Below, in pieces: positions 1,630-18,492 of a stretch of DNA of 64,000 nucleotides (position 1 is its first letter; each line of letters begins with the position of its first letter). Where the stretch lies: contig CAZIEY010000002.1 of assembly GCA_964538855.1 (NCBI GenBank), forward strand, positions 1,709-65,708, written 5' to 3'. The stretch comes from an uncultured Candidatus Saccharibacteria bacterium. Lineage in GTDB: Bacteria > Patescibacteriota > Minisyncoccia > Phycocordibacterales > JAACPR01. The translations under genes and the position numbers were made by a program. The notes below the pieces were generated by a model. That model worked only from the letters and a program-made list of their open reading frames with translations, made no database searches and was not told the DNA's origin.

Positions 1630-1641
1630 GGTGGGTGGTTA

Positions 1642-1681
1642 TAGTTAAAGTTGCAGCGGGAAATTTAACTATGAGTTTTTA
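1642..1681 (+). terminator. Hairpin TAGTTAAA-N14-TTTAACTA followed by a T-run; a partial direct repeat tatagttaaagttgc follows
   Basis: 8 bp inverted repeat plus tgagttttta directly after the NUDIX stop. Confidence 0.4.
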
Positions 1682-1749
1682 TAGTTAAAGTTGCCTCGAT
1701 TTTTACTTAAATATCTACATCTTATTTTTAAATCTGGTATAATTTCGGC

Positions 1750-1953
1750 ATGAACCATACTATTAGATGCAAAAATCCAAAATGCGGTAAGATTCTAAAA
1801 AAGATCGGACCTTTTGCTACCGTTAAACCAGAAGGCCAACCAGCTCAGAAATATGACGGTACAGTAACTCTTATTTGCCCAGATCCCGATTGCTCTGAAT
1901 TTAACGTTACAATTAAAGTGCCTGAGAGCGAATATCTCAATATTTTACAATAA
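1750..1953 (+). CDS. Small zinc-ribbon protein resembling phage Mu Com (C-x2-C ... C-x4-C), directly upstream of hsdM
   Basis: IRCKNPKCGKILKK...LICPDPDC resembles Mu Com IRCxxCnKLL. An extended -10 tggtataat lies 9 nt upstream of the ATG. Confidence 0.5.
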   Translation: MNHTIRCKNPKCGKILKKIGPFATVKPEGQPAQKYDGTVTLICPDPDCSEFNVTIKVPESEYLNILQ

Positions 1954-2002
1954 AACAGCTTTACACATGTAAAGTTGCTTTATTTTTTGCATATGCTACC
2001 AT

Positions 2003-3805
2003 GTGGGTATGTCTATCGATAAAACAAAATTTATTACTCCAACTCAACTAGCCAAGATGTTGGGTATTACTCGTGTTGCTGTTCATCAGAAAATTAAAAA
2101 AGGGGACATCAAAGCTGAGAATGTCGGCGATTCATCAAAACCAACTTTCCTAATTCCTAAAGACTCATTACCTGCTGAAATACGCGAACGTATTGAGAAT
2201 GAAAAAAAGAAAATAACTGAAAGTGTGATTGGAAAAAATATTCAACATCACGATCTCAATTTTGAAAAAGAACTATGGGCAGCTGCAGATAAGCTTCGTG
2301 GAAATATCGATGTTTCCGAATATAAAAATATCGTCCTCGGATTACTTTTCTTGAAATATATATCCGACGCTTTCTATAAACGTCGCGAAGAACTTGATGC
2401 GCTAACCCGCGATCAAAAGAACGAAGATTTTTATGTTAAAGATGACAAAGCTCGGGCGCAAATTCTGGAAACAAAAGATTTCTATAAAAGTGCCGGTGTG
2501 TTTTATGTCCCCGAAAAGTCACGATGGGAATATTTGCAAACAAAAACAATGCAATCTGATATTGGCCAGGTGCTTGATAAAGCCATGGATTATATCGAAG
2601 AAGATAACCGAGCTGAACTTGAAGGTGTACTTCCAAAGATTTATACACGAACAACGCTTGATCATTCTGTTATTGGTGAGCTCGTAAATATATTCTCTCG
2701 TATTTCATTCGATCACAACTTTGATCGAGAAAAAGATATTCTCGGACGCATCTACGAATACTTCCTTGGTCAGTTTGCTTCATCTGAAGGAAAACGAGGA
2801 GGCGAATTTTTTACACCTAGATCAATCGTCAAATTACTCGTTGAAATTCTTCAGCCTTACGAAAATGCACGCGTATTAGATCCTGCTTGTGGTAGTGGTG
2901 GGATGTTTGTCGCTATGGGTGAATATCTACGCAATCACAGACAGGATGCATCAAAGCTTGCGATCAATGGGCAAGAAAGTAATCAAACAACACTTCGTCT
3001 TGCAAAGATGAATCTTGCAATTCGAGGACTCTCTGGAAAGATTGAACTCGGAAATACTTATTATCAAGACAAGTTTCCTCACCTGCAGGCAGATTTCGTG
3101 ATTGCAAACCCTCCCTTTAACGGAGAGTGGGAACCATCAAAGCTTTCTGATAATGATCCACGTATCACTCTCGGCACACCACCAAGTGGAAACGCAAACT
3201 TTATGTGGGTGCAACATTTTGCACACCACCTTGCACCAAATGGTTTAGCCGGGTTTGTTATGCCAAACGGAGCACTTGCCGTATCTGGTAAAGAAGGAGA
3301 GCTTCGCAAAAAGCTCATCGAAGAAGATCTTGTTGAGGTAATTATTTCTTGTCCATCAAAGCTTTTCTATAACGTATCTCTTCCCGTATCTTTATGGTTC
3401 TTGGCAAAGAATAAGAGTGGTGACCGTTTCCGAAAACGATCCGGTGAAACATTGTTTATTGATGCTCGAGATACATTCGAACAGATTTCACGTAAGCAGG
3501 TTGTGTTTAATCCAGAACATATAGAGAAAATCTCTAACACCGTGCGTGCGTGGCGTGGAGAAAAGGATGCGGGAAAATACGAAGATGTATCTGGATTCTG
3601 TAAGTCGGCATCTCTAGAGGAGATAAAAAAGAATGGATATGTTCTTACCCCTGGTCGTTATGTTGGACTTGCAGATGTAGAAGACGATGGAATTTCATTT
3701 GAAGAGAAGATGAAAAAACTTTCATCTGAACTTCGGAATGCTTTTGTGAAAGGTCGTGATCTGGAAAAGGAGATTGAGAAGAATTTAAAAGAATTAGGAT
3801 TCTAA
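2003..3805 (+). CDS. hsdM: Type I restriction-modification N6-adenine DNA methyltransferase subunit M with an extra N-terminal HTH (excisionase/AlpA-like) domain of about 85 aa
   Basis: LWAAADKLRG (HsdM_N), the NPPFNG catalytic motif and the FxGxG AdoMet region. N-terminal ITPTQLAKMLGITRVAVHQKIKKGDIKAENVG is HTH-like. Confidence 0.9.
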   Translation: MGMSIDKTKFITPTQLAKMLGITRVAVHQKIKKGDIKAENVGDSSKPTFLIPKDSLPAEIRERIENEKKKITESVIGKNIQHHDLNFEKELWAAADKLRGNIDVSEYKNIVLGLLFLKYISDAFYKRREELDALTRDQKNEDFYVKDDKARAQILETKDFYKSAGVFYVPEKSRWEYLQTKTMQSDIGQVLDKAMDYIEEDNRAELEGVLPKIYTRTTLDHSVIGELVNIFSRISFDHNFDREKDILGRIYEYFLGQFASSEGKRGGEFFTPRSIVKLLVEILQPYENARVLDPACGSGGMFVAMGEYLRNHRQDASKLAINGQESNQTTLRLAKMNLAIRGLSGKIELGNTYYQDKFPHLQADFVIANPPFNGEWEPSKLSDNDPRITLGTPPSGNANFMWVQHFAHHLAPNGLAGFVMPNGALAVSGKEGELRKKLIEEDLVEVIISCPSKLFYNVSLPVSLWFLAKNKSGDRFRKRSGETLFIDARDTFEQISRKQVVFNPEHIEKISNTVRAWRGEKDAGKYEDVSGFCKSASLEEIKKNGYVLTPGRYVGLADVEDDGISFEEKMKKLSSELRNAFVKGRDLEKEIEKNLKELGF

Positions 3806-3812
3806 AAATATT

Positions 3813-4622
3813 ATGAAAGAAAATACATTTGAAACAATTAAAAGGGTGGATGATAACGGTAAAGAATACTGGGCATCTAGGGATCTTGCTAAAGTTTTAG
3901 AATATAGTGATTACCGTAATTTTTTAGGCGTTATTGACAAGGCGAAAATTGCTTGTGAAAACAGTGGCGTGGTTATCCACAAGCATTTCGTCGAAGCCAA
4001 CGAAATGGTTCCTATTGGATCTGGTGCGGAAAGGATGACAGATACTGTGCATCTCTCTCGCTATGCATGCTATCTTATTGTACAAAATTCTGACCCTACA
4101 AAAGTTGTCGTTGCAAAGGGTCAGACTTATTTTGCAATTCAAACTCATCGGCAAGAAAAGACAGATAGTTTAGCTGAGGATAATAATCGAGTCTTCTTGC
4201 GCGAAGAAATGAAGAAACATAATACTGGTTTAATGCAAACTGCATCACTGGCAGGGGTTGAAAGCTTCGCCATCTTTCAGAATGCTGGTTATAAAGGTTT
4301 GTACGGTGGACGTACTATGCAAGATATCCATACTGAAAAGAAATTGACTAAATCACAAAAGATTCTTGATCATATGAATAGTGAGGAACTAGCTGCAAAT
4401 CTATTTCGTGCCACGCAAACAGATGCAAAAATAAAACGTGAAAATATAAAAGGACAAGGAAATGCAAATCTTGCGCACTATGAAGTTGGACAGAAGGTTC
4501 GTAACACTATCGCTAACCTTGGTGGAACCATGCCAGAAGATCTTCCTACTCCTGATGCTATTGGAAAAGCTCAAACGAGGATAAAGAAGTCAAAAAACAA
4601 GAAACTTACTGATGGGAAATAG
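3813..4622 (+). CDS. DinD-like (DNA-damage-inducible protein D, Bro-N domain) protein, embedded between hsdM and hsdS
   Basis: FETIKRVDDNGKEYWASRDLAKVLEYSDYRNFLGVIDKAKIACENSG...VHLSRYACYLIVQNSDPTKVVVAKGQTYFAIQTHRQE aligns closely with E. coli DinD. Confidence 0.7.
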   Translation: MKENTFETIKRVDDNGKEYWASRDLAKVLEYSDYRNFLGVIDKAKIACENSGVVIHKHFVEANEMVPIGSGAERMTDTVHLSRYACYLIVQNSDPTKVVVAKGQTYFAIQTHRQEKTDSLAEDNNRVFLREEMKKHNTGLMQTASLAGVESFAIFQNAGYKGLYGGRTMQDIHTEKKLTKSQKILDHMNSEELAANLFRATQTDAKIKRENIKGQGNANLAHYEVGQKVRNTIANLGGTMPEDLPTPDAIGKAQTRIKKSKNKKLTDGK

Positions 4623-4631
4623 AAAGCCAAT

Positions 4632-5732
4632 ATGAGTAAATTAATAGAACAAATAAATAAAGAAAAAAGAGAAATGACTCTAGGCGATGTTGTTACTTTT
4701 CATCGAGGTTATGACTTACCTTTAAATGAAATAAAACCAGGTTCATATCCTGTTGTTTTTTCTAATGGACGAAGAGAAAACCATGCTGAGTTTAAAGTTA
4801 CGGGCCCGGGAGTATTTACTGGGCGTAGTGGATCTTTGGGTGGTATTTTTTATGTTGAAGAAAATTATTGGCCCCACAACACAACTCTCTATGTAAGTAA
4901 TTTTCACGGTAATGATCCAAAGTATTGCTACTATTTTTTGTCGTCATTTGATTTCGCAAAATTTAATGCAGGTACTGGTGTTCCTACTTTAAATAGAAAT
5001 CACATTCACGGAATACCTGTAAAAATACCAGATCTTCCAACTCAAAAGAAAATTGCTGAAATCTTGAGTGCGTACGATGCAAAGATTGAGAATAATAATC
5101 TTATCATTAAGAAACTTGAAGCGACCGCTCAAACGTTATTCGACGAATGGTTCATAAACTTTCGATTCCCTGGATACGAGAAGGTGAAATTTGTTGATAG
5201 TGAAATGGGAGAAATCCCCGAGGGATGGGAAGTTTTAAAACTTGGCGATATTTTTGATATTAAATATGGCAAGAATTTGCCGACCTCAAAAATAAGTAAA
5301 GAAGGTAATTTTCCAGTTTACGGCGCTGGCGGAGTTATAGGTTTTTATGAAAAGAAAAATGTTGATGAAAAAGTGATTTTGATTACATGTAGAGGTAATG
5401 GTAGTGGAACTATATGGAGAACAAATGGAGAAGGTTTTGTTACAAATAATTCATTTATGATCCTGCCTAAGAAGAATTTTAATTACTTTAATTTCATATC
5501 TATATATTTTTTATTTAAGAACAGTAATGTTTCTGCGGCGTTGTCTGGGTCAGCACAGCCACAAATAACGATAGATGGATTAAGTCCTATTCAAACTATA
5601 TTTCCTGATAGAAATTTATTAGAGTCTTTTCAAAAATTGACAACAGTTATGTTTGATTTAACGGATGAGTTACTTGAAGAAAACATTTCTTTAAGGTTGC
5701 AGAGAGATCAATTATTAGCAAAATTAATTTAA
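4632..5732 (+). CDS. hsdS: Type I restriction-modification specificity subunit S (two target-recognition domains)
   Basis: Two TRD-like halves separated by the conserved coiled region (KIAEILSAYDAKIENNNLIIKKLEATAQTLFDEWF). Operon context. Confidence 0.85.
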   Translation: MSKLIEQINKEKREMTLGDVVTFHRGYDLPLNEIKPGSYPVVFSNGRRENHAEFKVTGPGVFTGRSGSLGGIFYVEENYWPHNTTLYVSNFHGNDPKYCYYFLSSFDFAKFNAGTGVPTLNRNHIHGIPVKIPDLPTQKKIAEILSAYDAKIENNNLIIKKLEATAQTLFDEWFINFRFPGYEKVKFVDSEMGEIPEGWEVLKLGDIFDIKYGKNLPTSKISKEGNFPVYGAGGVIGFYEKKNVDEKVILITCRGNGSGTIWRTNGEGFVTNNSFMILPKKNFNYFNFISIYFLFKNSNVSAALSGSAQPQITIDGLSPIQTIFPDRNLLESFQKLTTVMFDLTDELLEENISLRLQRDQLLAKLI

Positions 5733-5736
5733 ATAT

Positions 5737-6348
5737 ATGACGAATATTGAAATAATATTAAAATTCACAGAATTATTACTTGCATGGCCAGTAACCGCTT
5801 TAGTTTTAGGTATTGTATTTATACTATATTTTAAAAATGAAATTAAAACTTTATTAAAATCTAAAAAAGTGAAAGTCGGGAATGTTGAATTTGATCAAAC
5901 CCTACAATCAGAAGAAGTTGAAGATAAAACTTCTAAAGATATAGAGCAGCCAGTAAATGGGCAGTATTTTTCTGATGAGCAAATTTCTCAACTAGGCCAA
6001 ACTATAAATAATCTTGAAAATGATTCAACACAAAAAAACCAAAAAATAAATGAACTTACAGCACTAGCTGTTCAATTAAATGAAAGAGCAGAAACATTTG
6101 AATTTTTGTATCTGAATACTTTTTTAGTCATGAATTCAAAAATTGCACTCAAACACTGGTTTAAAGATGGTTCAACCAAAGATTATTTTATGAGTAGTTA
6201 CCCTTTACCGGAAGCAATTGTAGATAAAAACCAAGAATTAAGTGCAATATTTAACGTGCTACTTGTAAATAATCTAATTGAGCAAGTTGGAGAAATATTT
6301 AGAATAAATGAAAAAGGTAAAAAATTCTTAGAAAAGATCGGAATGTAA
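5737..6348 (+). CDS. Hypothetical protein with an N-terminal TM helix, embedded between hsdS and hsdR
   Basis: ORF with 4 nt spacing to both neighbours. N-terminal hydrophobic LLLAWPVTALVLGIVFILYF. No recognisable motif. Confidence 0.5.
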   Translation: MTNIEIILKFTELLLAWPVTALVLGIVFILYFKNEIKTLLKSKKVKVGNVEFDQTLQSEEVEDKTSKDIEQPVNGQYFSDEQISQLGQTINNLENDSTQKNQKINELTALAVQLNERAETFEFLYLNTFLVMNSKIALKHWFKDGSTKDYFMSSYPLPEAIVDKNQELSAIFNVLLVNNLIEQVGEIFRINEKGKKFLEKIGM

Positions 6349-6352
6349 ATTT

Positions 6353-9300
6353 ATGAACCCACTAAACGAAAACAATTTAACAGAGCAATCACTTATCGAA
6401 TGGCTACAAGGTCAGGGCTATGAGTATGTCTACGGTCCAACAATAGCACCAAATCAACCTAACGCGGAGCGCGAGGATTTTCGAGGTGTTGTACTCAAGA
6501 ATCGACTTCTTACTTCTGTACGCCGATTCAACCCACAACTTCCTGCGCTACAAGCAGAACAAGTTGTTGACGATATCGCGGGATATCACAATGCTGATGC
6601 AATGATCGGTAATAAGGAAATGTTCACTCTTATTACTGAAGGGATGAAAAAAACATGGCAAGAGGACGGTATAGAAAAAACAGAAGTTGTTAAGCTTATT
6701 GATTTTGAAAATGTTGAAGCAAACGATTTCTTAGTAACAAATCAGTTTACCGTTCAGGGTGTAGAGAATGTTTGCCGTCTTGATGGTGTTATTTTTGTGA
6801 ATGGTATTCCACTCTCAGTTTTGGAACTCAAAAGTCCCGTGCGTGAAGAAGCTTCAATTGGTCAGGCGTATCGAGATGTGGAGTACTACAAAAAAGAAAT
6901 TCCAAAGATGTTTTTGTATAACCAAGTGCTTTGTTTGTCTGATCTTACAGAAGCTCGACATGGAACAATTTCTTCTTCGTGGGAACGATACGGAACATGG
7001 AAAGGTATGAATTCGGAGATAGATGCTCCAAGCAGTGTTACGGAACTCGAGGTTCTTGCAAAAGGTCTTTTTGATAAAAAACGACTTCTCGACCTCGTTC
7101 AAAACTTCATAGTTTTTGAAGCAGATGGTGACGGTGATGCAGTGACTTACACAAAGAAGATGGCTTTATATCACCAGTACTACGGTGTAAACAAAACAAT
7201 CGATAGCACTGTGCGATCAGTTGGTGGAGAGCAAGATCGAAAGATTGGTGTCTTTTGGCACACACAAGGATCTGGAAAGTCACTCTCAATGGTTTTTTAT
7301 GTGAACAAGACAAAACGTATTCCAGAACTTAAAAGCCCTGCGTATGTTTTTCTCACTGACCGTGAAGATCTAGACGACCAACTCTTTAAGACATTTAGTC
7401 GTACAGGATATAGCACTCTTGCTAAACGAGCATCAAGTATTAAGGATTTGAAAGATAAGCTCACCCATCTTGGAAGTGAACTCATTTTTACCACTATTCA
7501 GAAATTCCAAGATGATCCTGATGCGAATAATGTTTTAAGTGAACGAGAAAATATTATCGTTCTTACTGATGAGGCACACCGAACGCAATACAGTATGCTC
7601 GCAGGTAATGTGAGACAGGCTTTGCCACAAGCAAGCTTTTTGGGTGTGACAGGAACTCCACTTTCAAACCATGATAAAAACACAATGCGTGTTTTCGGTG
7701 ATATTGTGAGTTCATACAAAATCGGACAAGCAGTAAAAGATAAAGCGACTGTGCCGATTTATTATGAAGGTCGCCTTGTTCCACTCCATTTGGCGGATAA
7801 ATTTGTAGACAGTAAGTTAGATGAAATTCTCGGAGAGATTGTGGTGGATGAAAAAGTAAAAGCTCGTAAAGAATGGGCGGTACTTGAAGAAGTTGTTGGT
7901 GCACCAAGTCGTATAAAAGAAATCGCAAGAGACGTTGTCGCTCACTTTAATAATCGCCCAATTAATGGTAAGGCGATGGTTGTTACTATGAGTCGTTCAA
8001 TTGCAGTCGCGATGTATAATGCCATAAAAGAAATTTCAGGAAGTCCGGAATGCGCGGTGATTATTTCTGGTATGGATGATTTTTCTAATCAAATTCAATC
8101 AGAGCATGATGTAAAGAAGCTCGAGAAGAGATTCAAGAAAATTAATGATCCGTTACGTTTGGTGATTGTATGTGATATGTGGCTAACAGGTTTTGATGTG
8201 CCAAATTTACACACGATGTATCTTGATAAGCCTCTTAAAAATCATGGATTAATGCAAGCAATTGCACGTGTAAATAGAGTATATAAAGATAAACCAGGTG
8301 GATTGATTGTGGATTATATTGGTATTGCCGAAAATTTAAAAAAGGCACTTGCTGTGTACGACAGTGATGTACAAAAAGAGGCAATGATTCCATTGGATGA
8401 AGTTATATTTGAAATGAAACAACTTCATGGAGAAGTTGCGTTATATTTTTCAGCAGTCGATTTTATTGGCTGGCGAGCAAAGAAGGGGGTAGAGTTGGTT
8501 GAATTTTTTCAGCACGCACTTAACGAAGTTATTTCCGAGAATGGTCGTTTATCAGATGAACGAAAAATGAGATTCATTGGTTTGGTTTCAAAATTATCTC
8601 GATTGCATGCACTTGTAATGCCTGCCGAACCAGCAATGAGTATTACGGGTGATGTGCGATTCTTCCAATCAATTAGCGAGTCTGTCAGCAAACAGACTTT
8701 TATACCTGGAATTATTTTTCCAGAAGCAACCGAGAGTGCTATCCGTAGTTTGGTGCATGATTCTGTACAAGCTGAAGGTGTGATTGATTTATTTACGAAA
8801 GCAGGAGAAGAGAGAAAAAAAATTTCAATTTTCGATGCGCGTTTTGCTGATGAAATCAATAAGACAAAATATAAAAACTTGGCAATTGACACGATTCGAA
8901 GAATGCTCGATGAGGAGATAAAAGTTCGTTCTCGTGTTAACAAGGCGCGCTATGAGTCTATGCTTACATTACTGACAGAACTTATCGCAAAATACGAAAA
9001 TAATGTGATTAGTTCTGCGGAAATTATTAAACACTTATTACAAGTTGCTGCAGAAATTAAAGAACTCGATAAGGAGAGCGAGGAGTTGGGCTTATCTTCT
9101 GATGAAGTTGTATTTTATGATACTCTTACTAGCGATCCAGAATTAAAAAAAGCAGGAATTGATATTAAAGAGTTCGTGAAAGATCTAACGAAGCGGGTTC
9201 GAAGAGATTTAACTATTGATTGGACTAATAATGAAACGATTAAAGCACGTATTCGTCAAAATGTTCGCCTGCTGATTATTCAAAAAGGTGTATCTGATAT

Positions 9301-9376
9301 GGTCCACACAGAACGTTTAATCGAATCGATTTATCAGGAAACTGTCAGGGTGTATAGGGAATATGTTCCGGCATAA
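6353..9376 (+). CDS. hsdR: Type I restriction enzyme endonuclease subunit R
   Basis: DEAH-box helicase motifs (TGSGKS-like FWHTQGSGKS, VLTDEAHRTQ), 1007 aa, operon context. Confidence 0.9.
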   Translation: MNPLNENNLTEQSLIEWLQGQGYEYVYGPTIAPNQPNAEREDFRGVVLKNRLLTSVRRFNPQLPALQAEQVVDDIAGYHNADAMIGNKEMFTLITEGMKKTWQEDGIEKTEVVKLIDFENVEANDFLVTNQFTVQGVENVCRLDGVIFVNGIPLSVLELKSPVREEASIGQAYRDVEYYKKEIPKMFLYNQVLCLSDLTEARHGTISSSWERYGTWKGMNSEIDAPSSVTELEVLAKGLFDKKRLLDLVQNFIVFEADGDGDAVTYTKKMALYHQYYGVNKTIDSTVRSVGGEQDRKIGVFWHTQGSGKSLSMVFYVNKTKRIPELKSPAYVFLTDREDLDDQLFKTFSRTGYSTLAKRASSIKDLKDKLTHLGSELIFTTIQKFQDDPDANNVLSERENIIVLTDEAHRTQYSMLAGNVRQALPQASFLGVTGTPLSNHDKNTMRVFGDIVSSYKIGQAVKDKATVPIYYEGRLVPLHLADKFVDSKLDEILGEIVVDEKVKARKEWAVLEEVVGAPSRIKEIARDVVAHFNNRPINGKAMVVTMSRSIAVAMYNAIKEISGSPECAVIISGMDDFSNQIQSEHDVKKLEKRFKKINDPLRLVIVCDMWLTGFDVPNLHTMYLDKPLKNHGLMQAIARVNRVYKDKPGGLIVDYIGIAENLKKALAVYDSDVQKEAMIPLDEVIFEMKQLHGEVALYFSAVDFIGWRAKKGVELVEFFQHALNEVISENGRLSDERKMRFIGLVSKLSRLHALVMPAEPAMSITGDVRFFQSISESVSKQTFIPGIIFPEATESAIRSLVHDSVQAEGVIDLFTKAGEERKKISIFDARFADEINKTKYKNLAIDTIRRMLDEEIKVRSRVNKARYESMLTLLTELIAKYENNVISSAEIIKHLLQVAAEIKELDKESEELGLSSDEVVFYDTLTSDPELKKAGIDIKEFVKDLTKRVRRDLTIDWTNNETIKARIRQNVRLLIIQKGVSDMVHTERLIESIYQETVRVYREYVPA

Positions 9377-9384
9377 AGTTTTTA

Positions 9385-9825
9385 ATGACATTCGAACACT
9401 CACAAGATAAAATTTTCTTCGCACAACTGCTCGCCGGCGGTTCTGTTAATGTGCTCGAACAAAAATATAGCGAACTATTCGATTTTCGAAATCCGCTTAT
9501 AAAACGAAAAGAGTTCAACGCTATTCGACCAAATCTTCTAAAAAGTTTAGTCGAAAAATACGGTCATACATGTCAGCTGCATATTCACCCGGAATGTAAT
9601 TCTGACGGTGCATTGGAAGTCGATCATATTATCCCTTTATCAACCAATGTCCTGAATAAAGAAATTCGACATATGCAACGTATTCCACCTGCAAAAGTTC
9701 CAGCGCAAAGCTTTGGTTCTAACAACATAAAAAATATGGCGTTAGCTTGTCCTAGATGCAATTCTCGAAAAAAACATAGAATTCTCGCCGAACTTACAGT
9801 GAAACTTTTGCAATTGCGGTTTTAA
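9385..9825 (+). CDS. HNH endonuclease
   Basis: HIHPECNSDGALEVDHIIPLS...N...LACPRCNSRKKHR (HNH motif with zinc-binding Cys pairs). Confidence 0.7.
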   Translation: MTFEHSQDKIFFAQLLAGGSVNVLEQKYSELFDFRNPLIKRKEFNAIRPNLLKSLVEKYGHTCQLHIHPECNSDGALEVDHIIPLSTNVLNKEIRHMQRIPPAKVPAQSFGSNNIKNMALACPRCNSRKKHRILAELTVKLLQLRF

Positions 9826-9846: not shown

Positions 9847-10338
9847 ATGATCCTCTTCCTCTCCGGCTCTATCAACTCTGGCAAATCGACGGTGGCGCGA
9901 TTGTTGGTGGAACGTGTGCCTCGAACGGCGCTTGTCGAGATTGATGTGGTGCGAGACATGGTGCCGTGGATGCCGCTTGAGGACTCGATTCCTCTCAATT
10001 GGACGAATGCAATGTCGCTCATTCGCAATTTTGTCAAAGCCGACTGCAACGTCGTTGTGCCGTATCCGCTGTCGCTCGCAAATTACGAACGGGTCATGCG
10101 CGAGCTTGCCGACATCGCTGTGCAAATGCATGTGGTGACGCTTGCTCCTCGCAAAGACATTGCTCTCACAAATCGTGGCACCCGCGAGCTGGACGATTGG
10201 GAACGCGGACGCATCGAATATCACTACAACATCGGCATCAATGCGCCTGCGTTTGGTCACATCATCGACAACTCGGCTCAGACGGTGGAGGAGACGGTGG
10301 GGGAAATATTACAATTACTGCGGCTTGTAAATATATAA
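9847..10338 (+). CDS. Small P-loop NTPase (kinase/zeta-toxin-like AAA_33 fold), GC-rich
   Basis: Walker A GSINSGKST near the N-terminus. The segment is markedly GC-rich relative to its neighbours. Confidence 0.5.
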   Translation: MILFLSGSINSGKSTVARLLVERVPRTALVEIDVVRDMVPWMPLEDSIPLNWTNAMSLIRNFVKADCNVVVPYPLSLANYERVMRELADIAVQMHVVTLAPRKDIALTNRGTRELDDWERGRIEYHYNIGINAPAFGHIIDNSAQTVEETVGEILQLLRLVNI

Positions 10339-10361
10339 TGGTGTGATGATATAATGCTTAT

Positions 10362-11258
10362 ATGGAACAATTTCCCACACCCCGCAAAGAATCTGGTATA
10401 AATCGCGTTGTTGGTTTTGAGAGTGAACCACAGGCAGAGCAGATGGCAACGTCATTTTTTCGACGTAGATTCGAGCACAATCAAATAATACCGGGATATG
10501 AAATTGAACAAACTGCTGAACAGGCTGAACTCATCAATCGTATGAATGTTCAGGTAAGAGATTTTTTGAAACGGTACGGAATTGATTCGATTGATATTAC
10601 CGCACAGAATATTCATATTATAGATAAGCCTAAATTTACACCAGAAGAAATTCGTCAATTAAAAGATGGACCCGGAGATGTGGTTGGTTATCATGATCCC
10701 GAACGACAGTGCATTGTTGTAATGCAGGATTATAATGAAGATAAAGCAAAATTTTTTCGGATACTTGTGCATGAAATGTTTCATATGCAATCTTTTGTAT
10801 CGTATCAGAAAACTACTCGTGAATGTGCAGAGATTGGTTTGGCAAAGGGTGATGTGGAAGCTCAGCTTACGATGCGTCGATCAGGTTTTTCTATACGAAA
10901 AGCAGATAGTGATACAATTTTGTTTAATAAATTAAATGAGGCCATAATCACAGAGCTTGAAATTTTGTTTGTTCAAGAGTATTTATCGACCTGGCCAGAG
11001 CTCGCGGATGGTCGGCGTGTCGAGACGCTTACATATGCATACAGCAAAGAGTGTGCCCAATTGCGTGAATTAATCTCGGAATTATTTGAGAAAAATAAAG
11101 ATATATTTAATTCGTCGGATGAAGTGTTCAGAATGTTCGTCGATGCAACTATGACGGGAAGGTTGCTTCCTATAGCTCGTCTTATCGATACGACTTTTGG
11201 TGCGGGTGCATTCCGCAAGTTAGGCCAAGATACCCAGAGGGAATTAGGGAAAAAGTGA
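10362..11258 (+). CDS. Hypothetical protein with an HExxH zinc-metallopeptidase-like motif
   Basis: ILVHEMFHMQSF contains HEMFH. Confidence 0.4.
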   Translation: MEQFPTPRKESGINRVVGFESEPQAEQMATSFFRRRFEHNQIIPGYEIEQTAEQAELINRMNVQVRDFLKRYGIDSIDITAQNIHIIDKPKFTPEEIRQLKDGPGDVVGYHDPERQCIVVMQDYNEDKAKFFRILVHEMFHMQSFVSYQKTTRECAEIGLAKGDVEAQLTMRRSGFSIRKADSDTILFNKLNEAIITELEILFVQEYLSTWPELADGRRVETLTYAYSKECAQLRELISELFEKNKDIFNSSDEVFRMFVDATMTGRLLPIARLIDTTFGAGAFRKLGQDTQRELGKK

Positions 11259-18307: not shown

Positions 18308-18394
18308 GGAGAGATGGCTGAGTGGTTGAAGGCACTCGATTCGAAATCGAGCATGGGGGAAACTCCATCGAGGGTTCAAATCCCTCTCTCTCCG
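18308..18394 (+). tRNA. tRNA-Ser (anticodon CGA), long variable arm, no encoded CCA
   Basis: Acceptor GGAGAGA/TCTCTCC, anticodon stem CTCGA/TCGAG with loop TTCGAAA, T-loop TTCAAAT. Confidence 0.85.
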
Positions 18395-18492
18395 CACAAC
18401 AACGAGCGAGCATAGCGAGCGACTATGTTTGTGCGAGAAGTGCAGCTAATAGTGGAGCGTGCTGCCTCCGCAAAAAATGATATAGTAGTTTC

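Follow-up and report, generated by a model that had tools for sequence, protein, structure and literature searches.

The 64-kb window analysed here is a stretch of contig CAZIEY010000002.1 from an uncultured Candidatus Saccharibacteria bacterium, and all coordinates below are positions in this window. It contains hsdM, the gene of a Type I restriction-modification (RM) methylase subunit, whose open reading frame (ORF) runs on the + strand from 2003 (GTG) or 2009 (ATG) to 3805. An initial annotation, made from the sequence of the window, had placed a 67-aa ORF directly upstream of hsdM, and this ORF, encoding a zinc-ribbon protein, is indeed present at 1750-1953 (+). Residues 1-85 of HsdM (2009-2263, +) correspond, according to profile matches, to an HTH (helix-turn-helix) domain of the HTH_17 (excisionase/MerR-like) family plus a linker. 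They are followed by the HsdM core (2264-3805, +), composed of HsdM_N (PF12161, E 1.8e-25; residues 88-230 of the long product) and then N6_Mtase (PF02384, E 4.7e-103; residues 243-561). These two domains, along with hsdS and hsdR in one operon, are those of a Type I RM HsdM. A perfect 16-bp palindrome at 1959-1974 separates the zinc-ribbon gene from the hsdM promoter. On the comparative evidence presented below, it is likely that the operon regulates itself through its HTH-HsdM protein, and that it stands beside an independent zinc-ribbon gene.

The description of the HsdM N-terminus in the initial annotation was borne out. About 85 residues precede HsdM_N and the LWAAADKLRG helix (LWxAADxLRG in general form), HsdM_N starting only at residue 88, and they include the excisionase/AlpA-type HTH that had been noticed: the window HTH alone matches HTH_17 (PF12728) at E 7.9e-5 and 23.3 bits, and the excisionase-type family TIGR01764 matches the HsdM N-terminus at E 3e-4. 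The HTH lies approximately at residues 9-54, with its recognition helix around SRVAVHQKIKKG. HTH_17 was matched at E up to 0.01 by all 77 distinct N-termini of the family, with a best E of 1.2e-10, and PF12728 is listed for 6 of 10 homologs in the precomputed Pfam tables; a profile search of the PDB with the HTH family returned marginal HTH matches only (E 0.2). As for the start codon, the GTG ORF beginning at 2003, which had been annotated, does exist, but the likely start is the ATG at 2009 (MSIDK...), a codon that all relatives have kept, unlike the GTG. Comparison with locus L001, a 1-kb contig with the same context, gave a dN/dS of 0.02 for the HTH domain. Searching with residues 1-88 produced only fragments, which proved to be hsdM 5' ends with a truncation or frameshift and mostly had a PF12728 annotation already. 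Stand-alone HTH proteins, which some short matches (e.g. P0005 and P0006) seemed to represent, were therefore rejected: these are frameshifted or truncated hsdM genes.

HTH-hsdM genes were found by pattern-based retrieval at no fewer than 93 loci, 28 in GTDB species representatives and 65 in metagenomes. The named records belong nearly all to Patescibacteria (Candidate Phyla Radiation, CPR), including Saccharibacteria, Paceibacterota, Parcubacteria and others, with three records from metagenome-assembled genomes labelled Gammaproteobacteria. In about 80 loci with full-length sequence, HTH-HsdM is encoded on a single in-frame ORF, of either 593-599 or 811-831 aa counted from the MSIDK start, and hsdS and hsdR are found downstream in essentially all relatives with enough sequence, although the interposed genes vary. 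The longer forms occur in L020, L029, L035, L038, L040, L053 and L072, where similarity to HsdS starts about 1.8 kb into the ORF; the sequences suggest a triple fusion of HTH, HsdM and half an HsdS, with hsdR directly after it. No plasmid or phage record matched the HTH extension. HsdM homologs are present in 3031 plasmid records, where the alignment begins only at query residue 74-90; of the two closest proteins, the one with 51% identity has 12 residues ahead of the alignment start and the one with 45% has 31. The homolog survey thus agrees with the initial annotation that the extension is atypical, and on these sequences it is not a general feature of HsdM.

The region upstream of hsdM was studied by aligning the 90 nt before the ATG in 79 distinct upstream regions. 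In the window, this region contains the predicted operator, the perfect palindrome CTTTACA-ca-TGTAAAG (CTTTACAcaTGTAAAG, 1959-1974), which was recognized from the conserved alignment, can be extended to 1957-1976, and with 17-nt arms reaches 1949-1984. It is the sole operator match in the 64 kb. The sequence and the alignment also define, on the + strand, a -35 element, TTGCTT (1975-1980), which the palindrome abuts, and, after a 16-nt spacer, a TG-extended -10 element, TGcTACCAT (1994-2002), located 6 nt before the ATG. A palindrome in this geometry with respect to the -35 and -10 is present in all 79 regions, and in 51 of them a TG-extended -10 (TGnTAnnnT) ends 6-7 nt ahead of the ATG. Such a short distance implies a leaderless mRNA, and the hsdM transcript is therefore probably leaderless. 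Between the window and L001, only one of the 55 positions of the intergenic region 1954-2008 differs, whereas the genes on either side have a dS of about 0.24.

Two clades can be told apart. In clade A, the main one, whose HTH domains are 65-100% identical to that of the window, every locus has the palindrome (AA)CTT(T/A)ACA-yr-TGT(T/A)AAG(TT), in most cases with TTGCAT or TTGCTT immediately behind it, and then 16-17 nt, TGcTAtACT, 6 nt and the ATG. When 150 nt were scanned, CTTWACAnnTGTWAAG was found with at least 12 of 14 matching positions in 66 of 66 distinct clade-A loci, none of which has a site of the clade-B type. In the divergent clade B (HTH 43-59% identical), GTATACn4GTATAC-like sites occupy the same positions in 11 of 11 loci, and the clade-A type is found in none. 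The recognition helix differs accordingly, being SRVAVHQKIKKG in clade A and TRAAINKQISEG in clade B. Of our arguments for recognition of the palindrome by the HTH, this co-variation of helix and site between the clades is the strongest, and it lends support to the C-protein-like control of methylase expression proposed in the initial annotation. The palindrome is not the target sequence of HsdS, because HsdS identity to the window protein ranges from 26% to 62% across loci sharing the same palindrome, so that HsdS diverges while the palindrome stays fixed.

Three arrangements of the site were observed. The palindrome is at -51 and abuts the -35, as in the window; or it is at -36, overlapping the -35 and the spacer; or the core promoter lies between two palindromes, one at about -70 and one at about -29. 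About one-third of the loci with the first or second arrangement have, in addition, an imperfect copy (CTTAACAcATGTCAAT) whose centre coincides with the start codon.

The palindrome of the window can also be read as RNA. A scan called a terminator-like hairpin at 1956-1977, with a T run behind it, and the fold of 1945-2030 has an energy of -18.9 kcal/mol (z = -2.8). It would be possible to explain the palindrome as a mere intrinsic terminator, with an HTH that is not regulatory and serves, for example, to tether the methylase to DNA in general. However, the palindrome is kept in loci where no co-directional gene lies upstream, such as those with a divergent recombinase gene, and its distance to the -35, the -10 and the ATG is fixed, with second copies overlapping +1. 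In addition, the arms are mismatched in many loci (CTTTACA..TGTTAAG), which suits a DNA half-site with W but would make an RNA stem weaker, and the clade with a different recognition helix has a different palindrome in its place. The terminator explanation is thus quite improbable as a full account. In the window itself, the operator palindrome and the T run probably also end the zinc-ribbon transcript.

A role of the HTH in mobility must also be weighed. HTH_17 is an excisionase-type fold family, and in about 20 relatives hsdM is preceded, 117-416 nt upstream, by a divergent gene for a large serine recombinase, so that the two genes share the intergenic region. An example is L004 (8727-9884, -), and others are L013, L028, L029, L031, L036, L078 and L084. 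The HTH-hsdM system, as judged from these loci, appears to travel on an integrative element. The domain might then act mainly on this element, as an excisionase/directionality factor or as a repressor of the recombinase gene. Yet the window, and most of the relatives for which 6 kb of upstream sequence is available, have no adjoining recombinase gene and still keep the palindrome and its geometry, and the palindrome is placed relative to the -35 and -10 of hsdM and not to the variable start of the recombinase gene. We regard a function mainly in mobility as improbable, while the operator may, in addition to its role at hsdM, control the mobility of the carrying element.

The sequences themselves show the HTH-HsdM fusion, the family to which the HTH belongs, a palindrome and a promoter geometry that are both conserved, and a helix that varies in step with the palindrome; DNA binding, the sign of its effect and the leaderless start are what we infer. 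In the mechanism we propose for the self-regulating operon, the HTH_17 domain of HsdM, presumably as a dimer, would bind the 16-20-bp palindrome at its own promoter, and the concentration of the methylase would thereby feed back on transcription of the entire operon. Repression is favoured as the net effect, because many relatives have either a second, weaker copy lying across -10/+1 or a single palindrome that covers the -35 and spacer, and because fused Type II methylases act in this way (PMC12707154). Activation from the distal site (centre near -42/-43) at low concentration, as with C proteins, would also be possible. The zinc-ribbon gene would be expressed from its own promoter, having landed beside the hsdM promoter only in the lineage of the window.

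The 67-aa protein has its cysteines arranged as C7-x4-C12, 30 residues, and C43-x4-C48, with KIGPFATVKPEGQP between the two knuckles. The pattern C-x2-C...C-x4-C, which had been attributed to it, is that of its distant homologs. A promoter-like site, TCTACA-18 nt-TGgTATAAT (1714-1743, +; 10/12 match, TG-extended), precedes the gene, and the -10 ends 6 nt ahead of the ATG at 1750, which predicts a leaderless mRNA here as well. In the comparison with L001, 5 of the 72 positions of 1678-1749 differ, none of them within the promoter hexamers; codons 1-38 show five synonymous and no nonsynonymous changes, and codons 39-67 are nearly neutral (dN/dS 0.94). We take the 67-aa ORF, on these sequence features, to be a real gene with its own promoter.

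A word-indexed search of 5.8 billion proteins gave a single homolog, that of L001 (87% identity), while exhaustive HMMER searching of 1.84 billion representatives revealed a real zinc-ribbon family, to which a profile search added members. The family profile, which contains the window's own sequence, matches the window ORF at E 3.4e-25. Among its members are some of 53-62 aa and others of 108-131 aa that have a second Cys/His module. The latter, in the members of 114-131 aa, reads C-x-C-x-H-x3-(M/L)H ... C-x4-5-C-x-C and has no database family match; long members include P0015, P0016, P0021, P0028, P0033, P0040, P0044 and P0045 (e.g. L100 5001-5348 and L103 1592-1939). The family pattern is C-x2-C-x5-K-IGPFA-xx-K-x-EG-x-P-xx-K-x-DG-x5-C-x4-C (short motif KIGPFAxxKxEG), in which the four Cys, G20 and A23 are invariant in 19 homologs. 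Searches with the family found no match in Pfam, nothing meaningful in PHROGs, and generic zinc fingers only in a sequence-profile search of the PDB. The KIGPFA family is thus undescribed and has no database name. AlphaFold2 modelled the 67-aa protein with a pLDDT of 57 from 2 sequences and 68 from 24 sequences, the latter model showing, with moderate confidence, a three-stranded sheet and a C-terminal helix.

All eight independent contexts of the family are defence or mobile islands. Its genes are found after MutH-Dcm-Vsr, before DUF2188-Tsp45I-MTase and convergent with a Dcm gene beside ImmA; beside ThsB-TIR, HEPN or SocA/Panacea; and in the neighbourhood of methylases fused to ParB or LexA, of terminase-like genes and of serine recombinases. 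Neither order, nor distance, nor orientation to the methyltransferase genes is constant in these contexts. Several family genes, including that of the window, have a -10 ending 6-7 nt before the ATG. One member lies 1.2 kb from the gene of a 481-aa protein (L104 912-2357, -; also in L105 and L106) with LexA DNA-binding, S24 peptidase and N6_N4 DNA methyltransferase domains, an apparent regulator-methylase fusion in CPR metagenomes. When the family HMM was run against all six-frame ORFs of the other HTH-hsdM loci, about 90 in number, no zinc-ribbon gene was found within 6 kb in any of them; among the fetched loci, matches were confined to the window, to three copies nearly identical to it and to those loci that had been retrieved by way of the zinc-ribbon family. 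The adjacency of the zinc-ribbon gene to hsdM is therefore lineage-specific.

The initial annotation had named this protein Com-type and had proposed a two-layer module, in which a Com-like translational activator, binding the hsdM mRNA upstream of the start, would be added to the HTH. Com of phage Mu acts on a stem-loop in the 5' untranslated region (UTR) of the downstream modification gene to allow its translation, and its zinc finger is of the type CxxC...CxxC with a short loop of about 16 residues. In both cases a small four-cysteine zinc protein is encoded just upstream of a DNA-modification gene, and the N-terminal IRCKNPKCGKIL recalls IRCKNCNKLL of Mu Com, the shared string being IRCKN..C.K.L. 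Moreover, a weak 5-6-bp helix could sequester the AUG in a read-through transcript, and methyltransferase genes lie near most family members. The label nevertheless proved to depend on that local string, as IRCKN is particular to the window sequence and is not a signature of the family. Neither the window protein nor any of the 19 family members matched PF10122 at E up to 1, although the Mu Com sequence used as a positive control matched it at E 2.7e-9. NCBIfam did not report the Com family on the 67-aa protein, and hhalign of the zinc-ribbon family against Com gave a probability of 32% over 21 columns, all in the first knuckle. No Com structure was found in the PDB. The cysteine spacing, C-x4-C/30/C-x4-C in the window and C-x2-C/~30/C-x4-C in the homologs, is unlike that of Com, and the 30-residue loop is conserved as KIGPFA..KPEG. 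Com homology was therefore rejected.

The genetic context of the zinc-ribbon gene differs from that of Com, too. Family members elsewhere have no fixed neighbour, so that a conserved partnership with a modification gene is not seen, and a terminator-like hairpin parts the zinc-ribbon gene from hsdM, which has its own conserved promoter. With only 6 nt between the end of this promoter and the ATG, a Com-type RNA target would be available in a read-through transcript alone; the hsdM mRNA being predicted to be leaderless, there would be no 5' UTR for an activator of this type to open. With the gene missing, in addition, from the other HTH-hsdM loci, the Com-like layer, and with it the two-layer module, finds no support, and we consider it very improbable that the protein activates hsdM translation.

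A modulator of the Lar/Ral or Ogr type, alleviating restriction or activating transcription in defence islands, would fit the constant occurrence of the family in defence and RM neighbourhoods. Its closest structural neighbours in BFVD, as found with Foldseek, are phage Ogr/Delta-like proteins (E 0.17-0.4, TM ~0.5) and, lower, Lar-like proteins (E 2.4-2.7). None of these structural matches is significant, however, and they were obtained with a model of pLDDT 68; generic zinc ribbons look alike; Foldseek against the PDB gave nothing significant (best E 4.3); and there is no Pfam match to Lar, with Ogr_Delta matched weakly by one of the 19 members (E 0.02). A true Lar/Ral- or Ogr-like function is accordingly a doubtful proposition, of quite low probability. 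Our best guess is that the zinc-ribbon protein serves defence islands as a small accessory that binds nucleic acid or protein. A broader possibility, which we rate as unlikely, is that the KIGPFA proteins are new CPR defence-island accessory factors acting, in a Lar-, Ogr- or Com-like manner but without homology, on neighbouring modification or restriction genes or their products. One of them would have been recruited here as a real second layer of control, and the operator of HTH-HsdM might independently couple RM expression to a serine-integrase element.

Several points weigh against a self-regulating operon standing beside an independent zinc-ribbon gene. The HTH assignment rests on profile matches, and the score of the window HTH falls under the Pfam gathering cut-off of 27 bits. 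The loci were retrieved by two peptide patterns, so that the survey covers fairly close relatives of the window HTH, and the evidence for autogenous control is comparative throughout. In the window, the proximal (+1) copy of the operator is degenerate and the -10 (TACCAT) is weak, and regulation may differ there from the family norm. Where a relative has a divergently placed serine recombinase gene, this gene may be under the control of the operator too, or in place of hsdM. Finally, a DNA methyltransferase gene is found within about 3 kb in 7 of the 8 contexts of the zinc-ribbon family, making a link of this family to DNA modification possible.

Upstream of the zinc-ribbon gene, a repeat search detected a cluster of repeats at 1640-1694 (+). 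The repeats TATAGTTAAAGTTGC and TAAAGTTGC, already noticed in the initial annotation, are real, but the element it placed at 1955-1990 is the 16-bp palindrome followed by TTGCTT, and not a third copy of the upstream repeat. Two direct copies of the 15-mer TATAGTTAAAGTTGC (1640-1654 and 1680-1694) have an inverted one (12/15, 1659-1673) between them; allowing up to 3 mismatches, the window has 7 matches against 2.3 expected, a number reached by none of 100 shuffles. TAAAGTTGC occurs exactly three times, starting at 1646, 1686 and 1970; this third copy covers the operator's right arm and the bases with which the -35 begins. The repeats sit in a 40-bp tandem duplication (1632-1671 / 1672-1711; 87% over 23 nt), in place of which L001 has about 125 bp of unrelated sequence and only the last repeat copy. 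The TATAGTTAAAGTTGC motif was absent from about 1 Mb of related loci, and its interpretation as a recurrent conserved operator was rejected, as it is confined to the lineage of the window. The cluster motif resembles the right operator arm plus -35 (TGTTAAGTTGC), and there is a 24-nt repeat of 75% identity (1686-1709 / 1970-1993); taken together, they hint that recombination inside the promoter region of hsdM brought in the zinc-ribbon cassette. The idea that the 8-bp GGGTATGT, present at 1615 and 2005, is an insertion scar was set aside, a repeat of this length being expected by chance in 600 bp.

The operon downstream of hsdM is encoded entirely on the + strand, in the order hsdM, Bro-N, hsdS, a 203-aa gene, hsdR and HNH. 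The Bro-N gene (3813-4622, +; ORF and Pfam) lies between hsdM and hsdS (4632-5732, +; Methylase_S domain, ORF and Pfam), and the 203-aa gene (5737-6348, +; ORF) between hsdS and hsdR (6353-9376, +; HSDR_N, SWI2_SNF2 and T1RH-like_C domains, ORF and Pfam). The HNH endonuclease gene (9385-9825, +; ORF and Pfam) starts 8 nt past hsdR. As judged by eye, the 203-aa protein has a hydrophobic N-terminus and a coiled-coil-like middle part; a 42% homolog occupies the equivalent position in L026, while in L082 and L083 a 58% homolog of the HNH gene is sited upstream of hsdM. The G+C content of the operon (0.29-0.43) is below that of some flanks (0.46 at 1001-1500 and 0.49 at 10001-10500), which is consistent with horizontal acquisition. 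Elsewhere in the window, a PemK/MazF-like toxin gene is present at 600-1010, with no obvious antitoxin gene and flanked by two NUDIX hydrolase genes (51-1629 region), and a tRNA-Ser gene is found at 18308-18395. An Rfam scan of the entire window returned only tRNAs, with no known RNA element at 1600-2010.

Type I RM systems are usually described as controlled post-translationally, by ClpXP-dependent restriction alleviation. In the loci studied here, a whole family of Type I methylases from reduced-genome CPR bacteria carries its putative regulator as a fused domain, together with a readable, co-varying candidate operator. This offers a testable protein-DNA pair with two natural, swappable specificity variants, a defined promoter/operator architecture for organisms whose transcription is little known, and a marker for a widespread mobile RM cassette. 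As by-products, an unnamed small zinc-ribbon family tracking defence islands came to light, and the analogy with Com was corrected.

No paper describing an HTH fused to HsdM was found in the literature searched. Transcriptional regulators of Type I operons have been described only recently, in both cases as separate proteins: HsdC of Mollicutes (PMC5282649) and RptR of Gammaproteobacteria (PMC12255303). If confirmed, autogenous transcriptional control by a Type I HsdM would be new. As with HsdC and RptR, the hsd operon opens with the coding sequence of a small DNA-binding regulator, which would act on repeats overlapping the promoter of the operon, and regulator and site are co-conserved across species. 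However, HsdC and RptR are not fused to HsdM; they are, respectively, a C-protein-like Xre HTH and a four-helix, bZIP-like dimer binding TAGCTA, and their sites are direct repeats instead of the 16-bp palindrome found here. The fusions reported in Mollicutes were with Type II methylases (PMC5282649).

The C proteins of Type II systems, such as C.PvuII and C.AhdI, exert autogenous control through palindromic operators at their own promoters, and many of the relatives studied here likewise have distal and proximal sites. The pvuIICR transcripts are leaderless, as is predicted for hsdM. C proteins are, in contrast, free-standing Xre-type (HTH_3) proteins of about 80 aa, encoded upstream of the endonuclease gene and recognizing a C-box, whereas the HTH of the window is fused and has HTH_17 as its best family. 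In addition, the operator of the window is unrelated to the GACT/AGTC C-box (as given in PMC5282649).

The regulatory Type II methylases with an N-terminal HTH, namely M.SsoII, M.Ecl18kI and M.EcoRII (PMC12707154), share with HTH-HsdM the fusion of an N-terminal HTH to a methyltransferase, a palindromic operator in or by their own promoter and expression tied to the amount of methylase; for the window, the binding, and with it the feedback on expression, is predicted from sequence. Those proteins, however, are C5-cytosine methylases of Type II systems and usually arbitrate between divergent M and R promoters, while the window protein is an N6-adenine Type I HsdM that heads a single hsdM-S-R operon in CPR hosts, with an HTH of the HTH_17 family and a promoter predicted to be leaderless. 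Because its catalytic domain is the N6_Mtase of a Type I HsdM, HTH-HsdM is an analogue of the SsoII-type methylases and not a member of their group.

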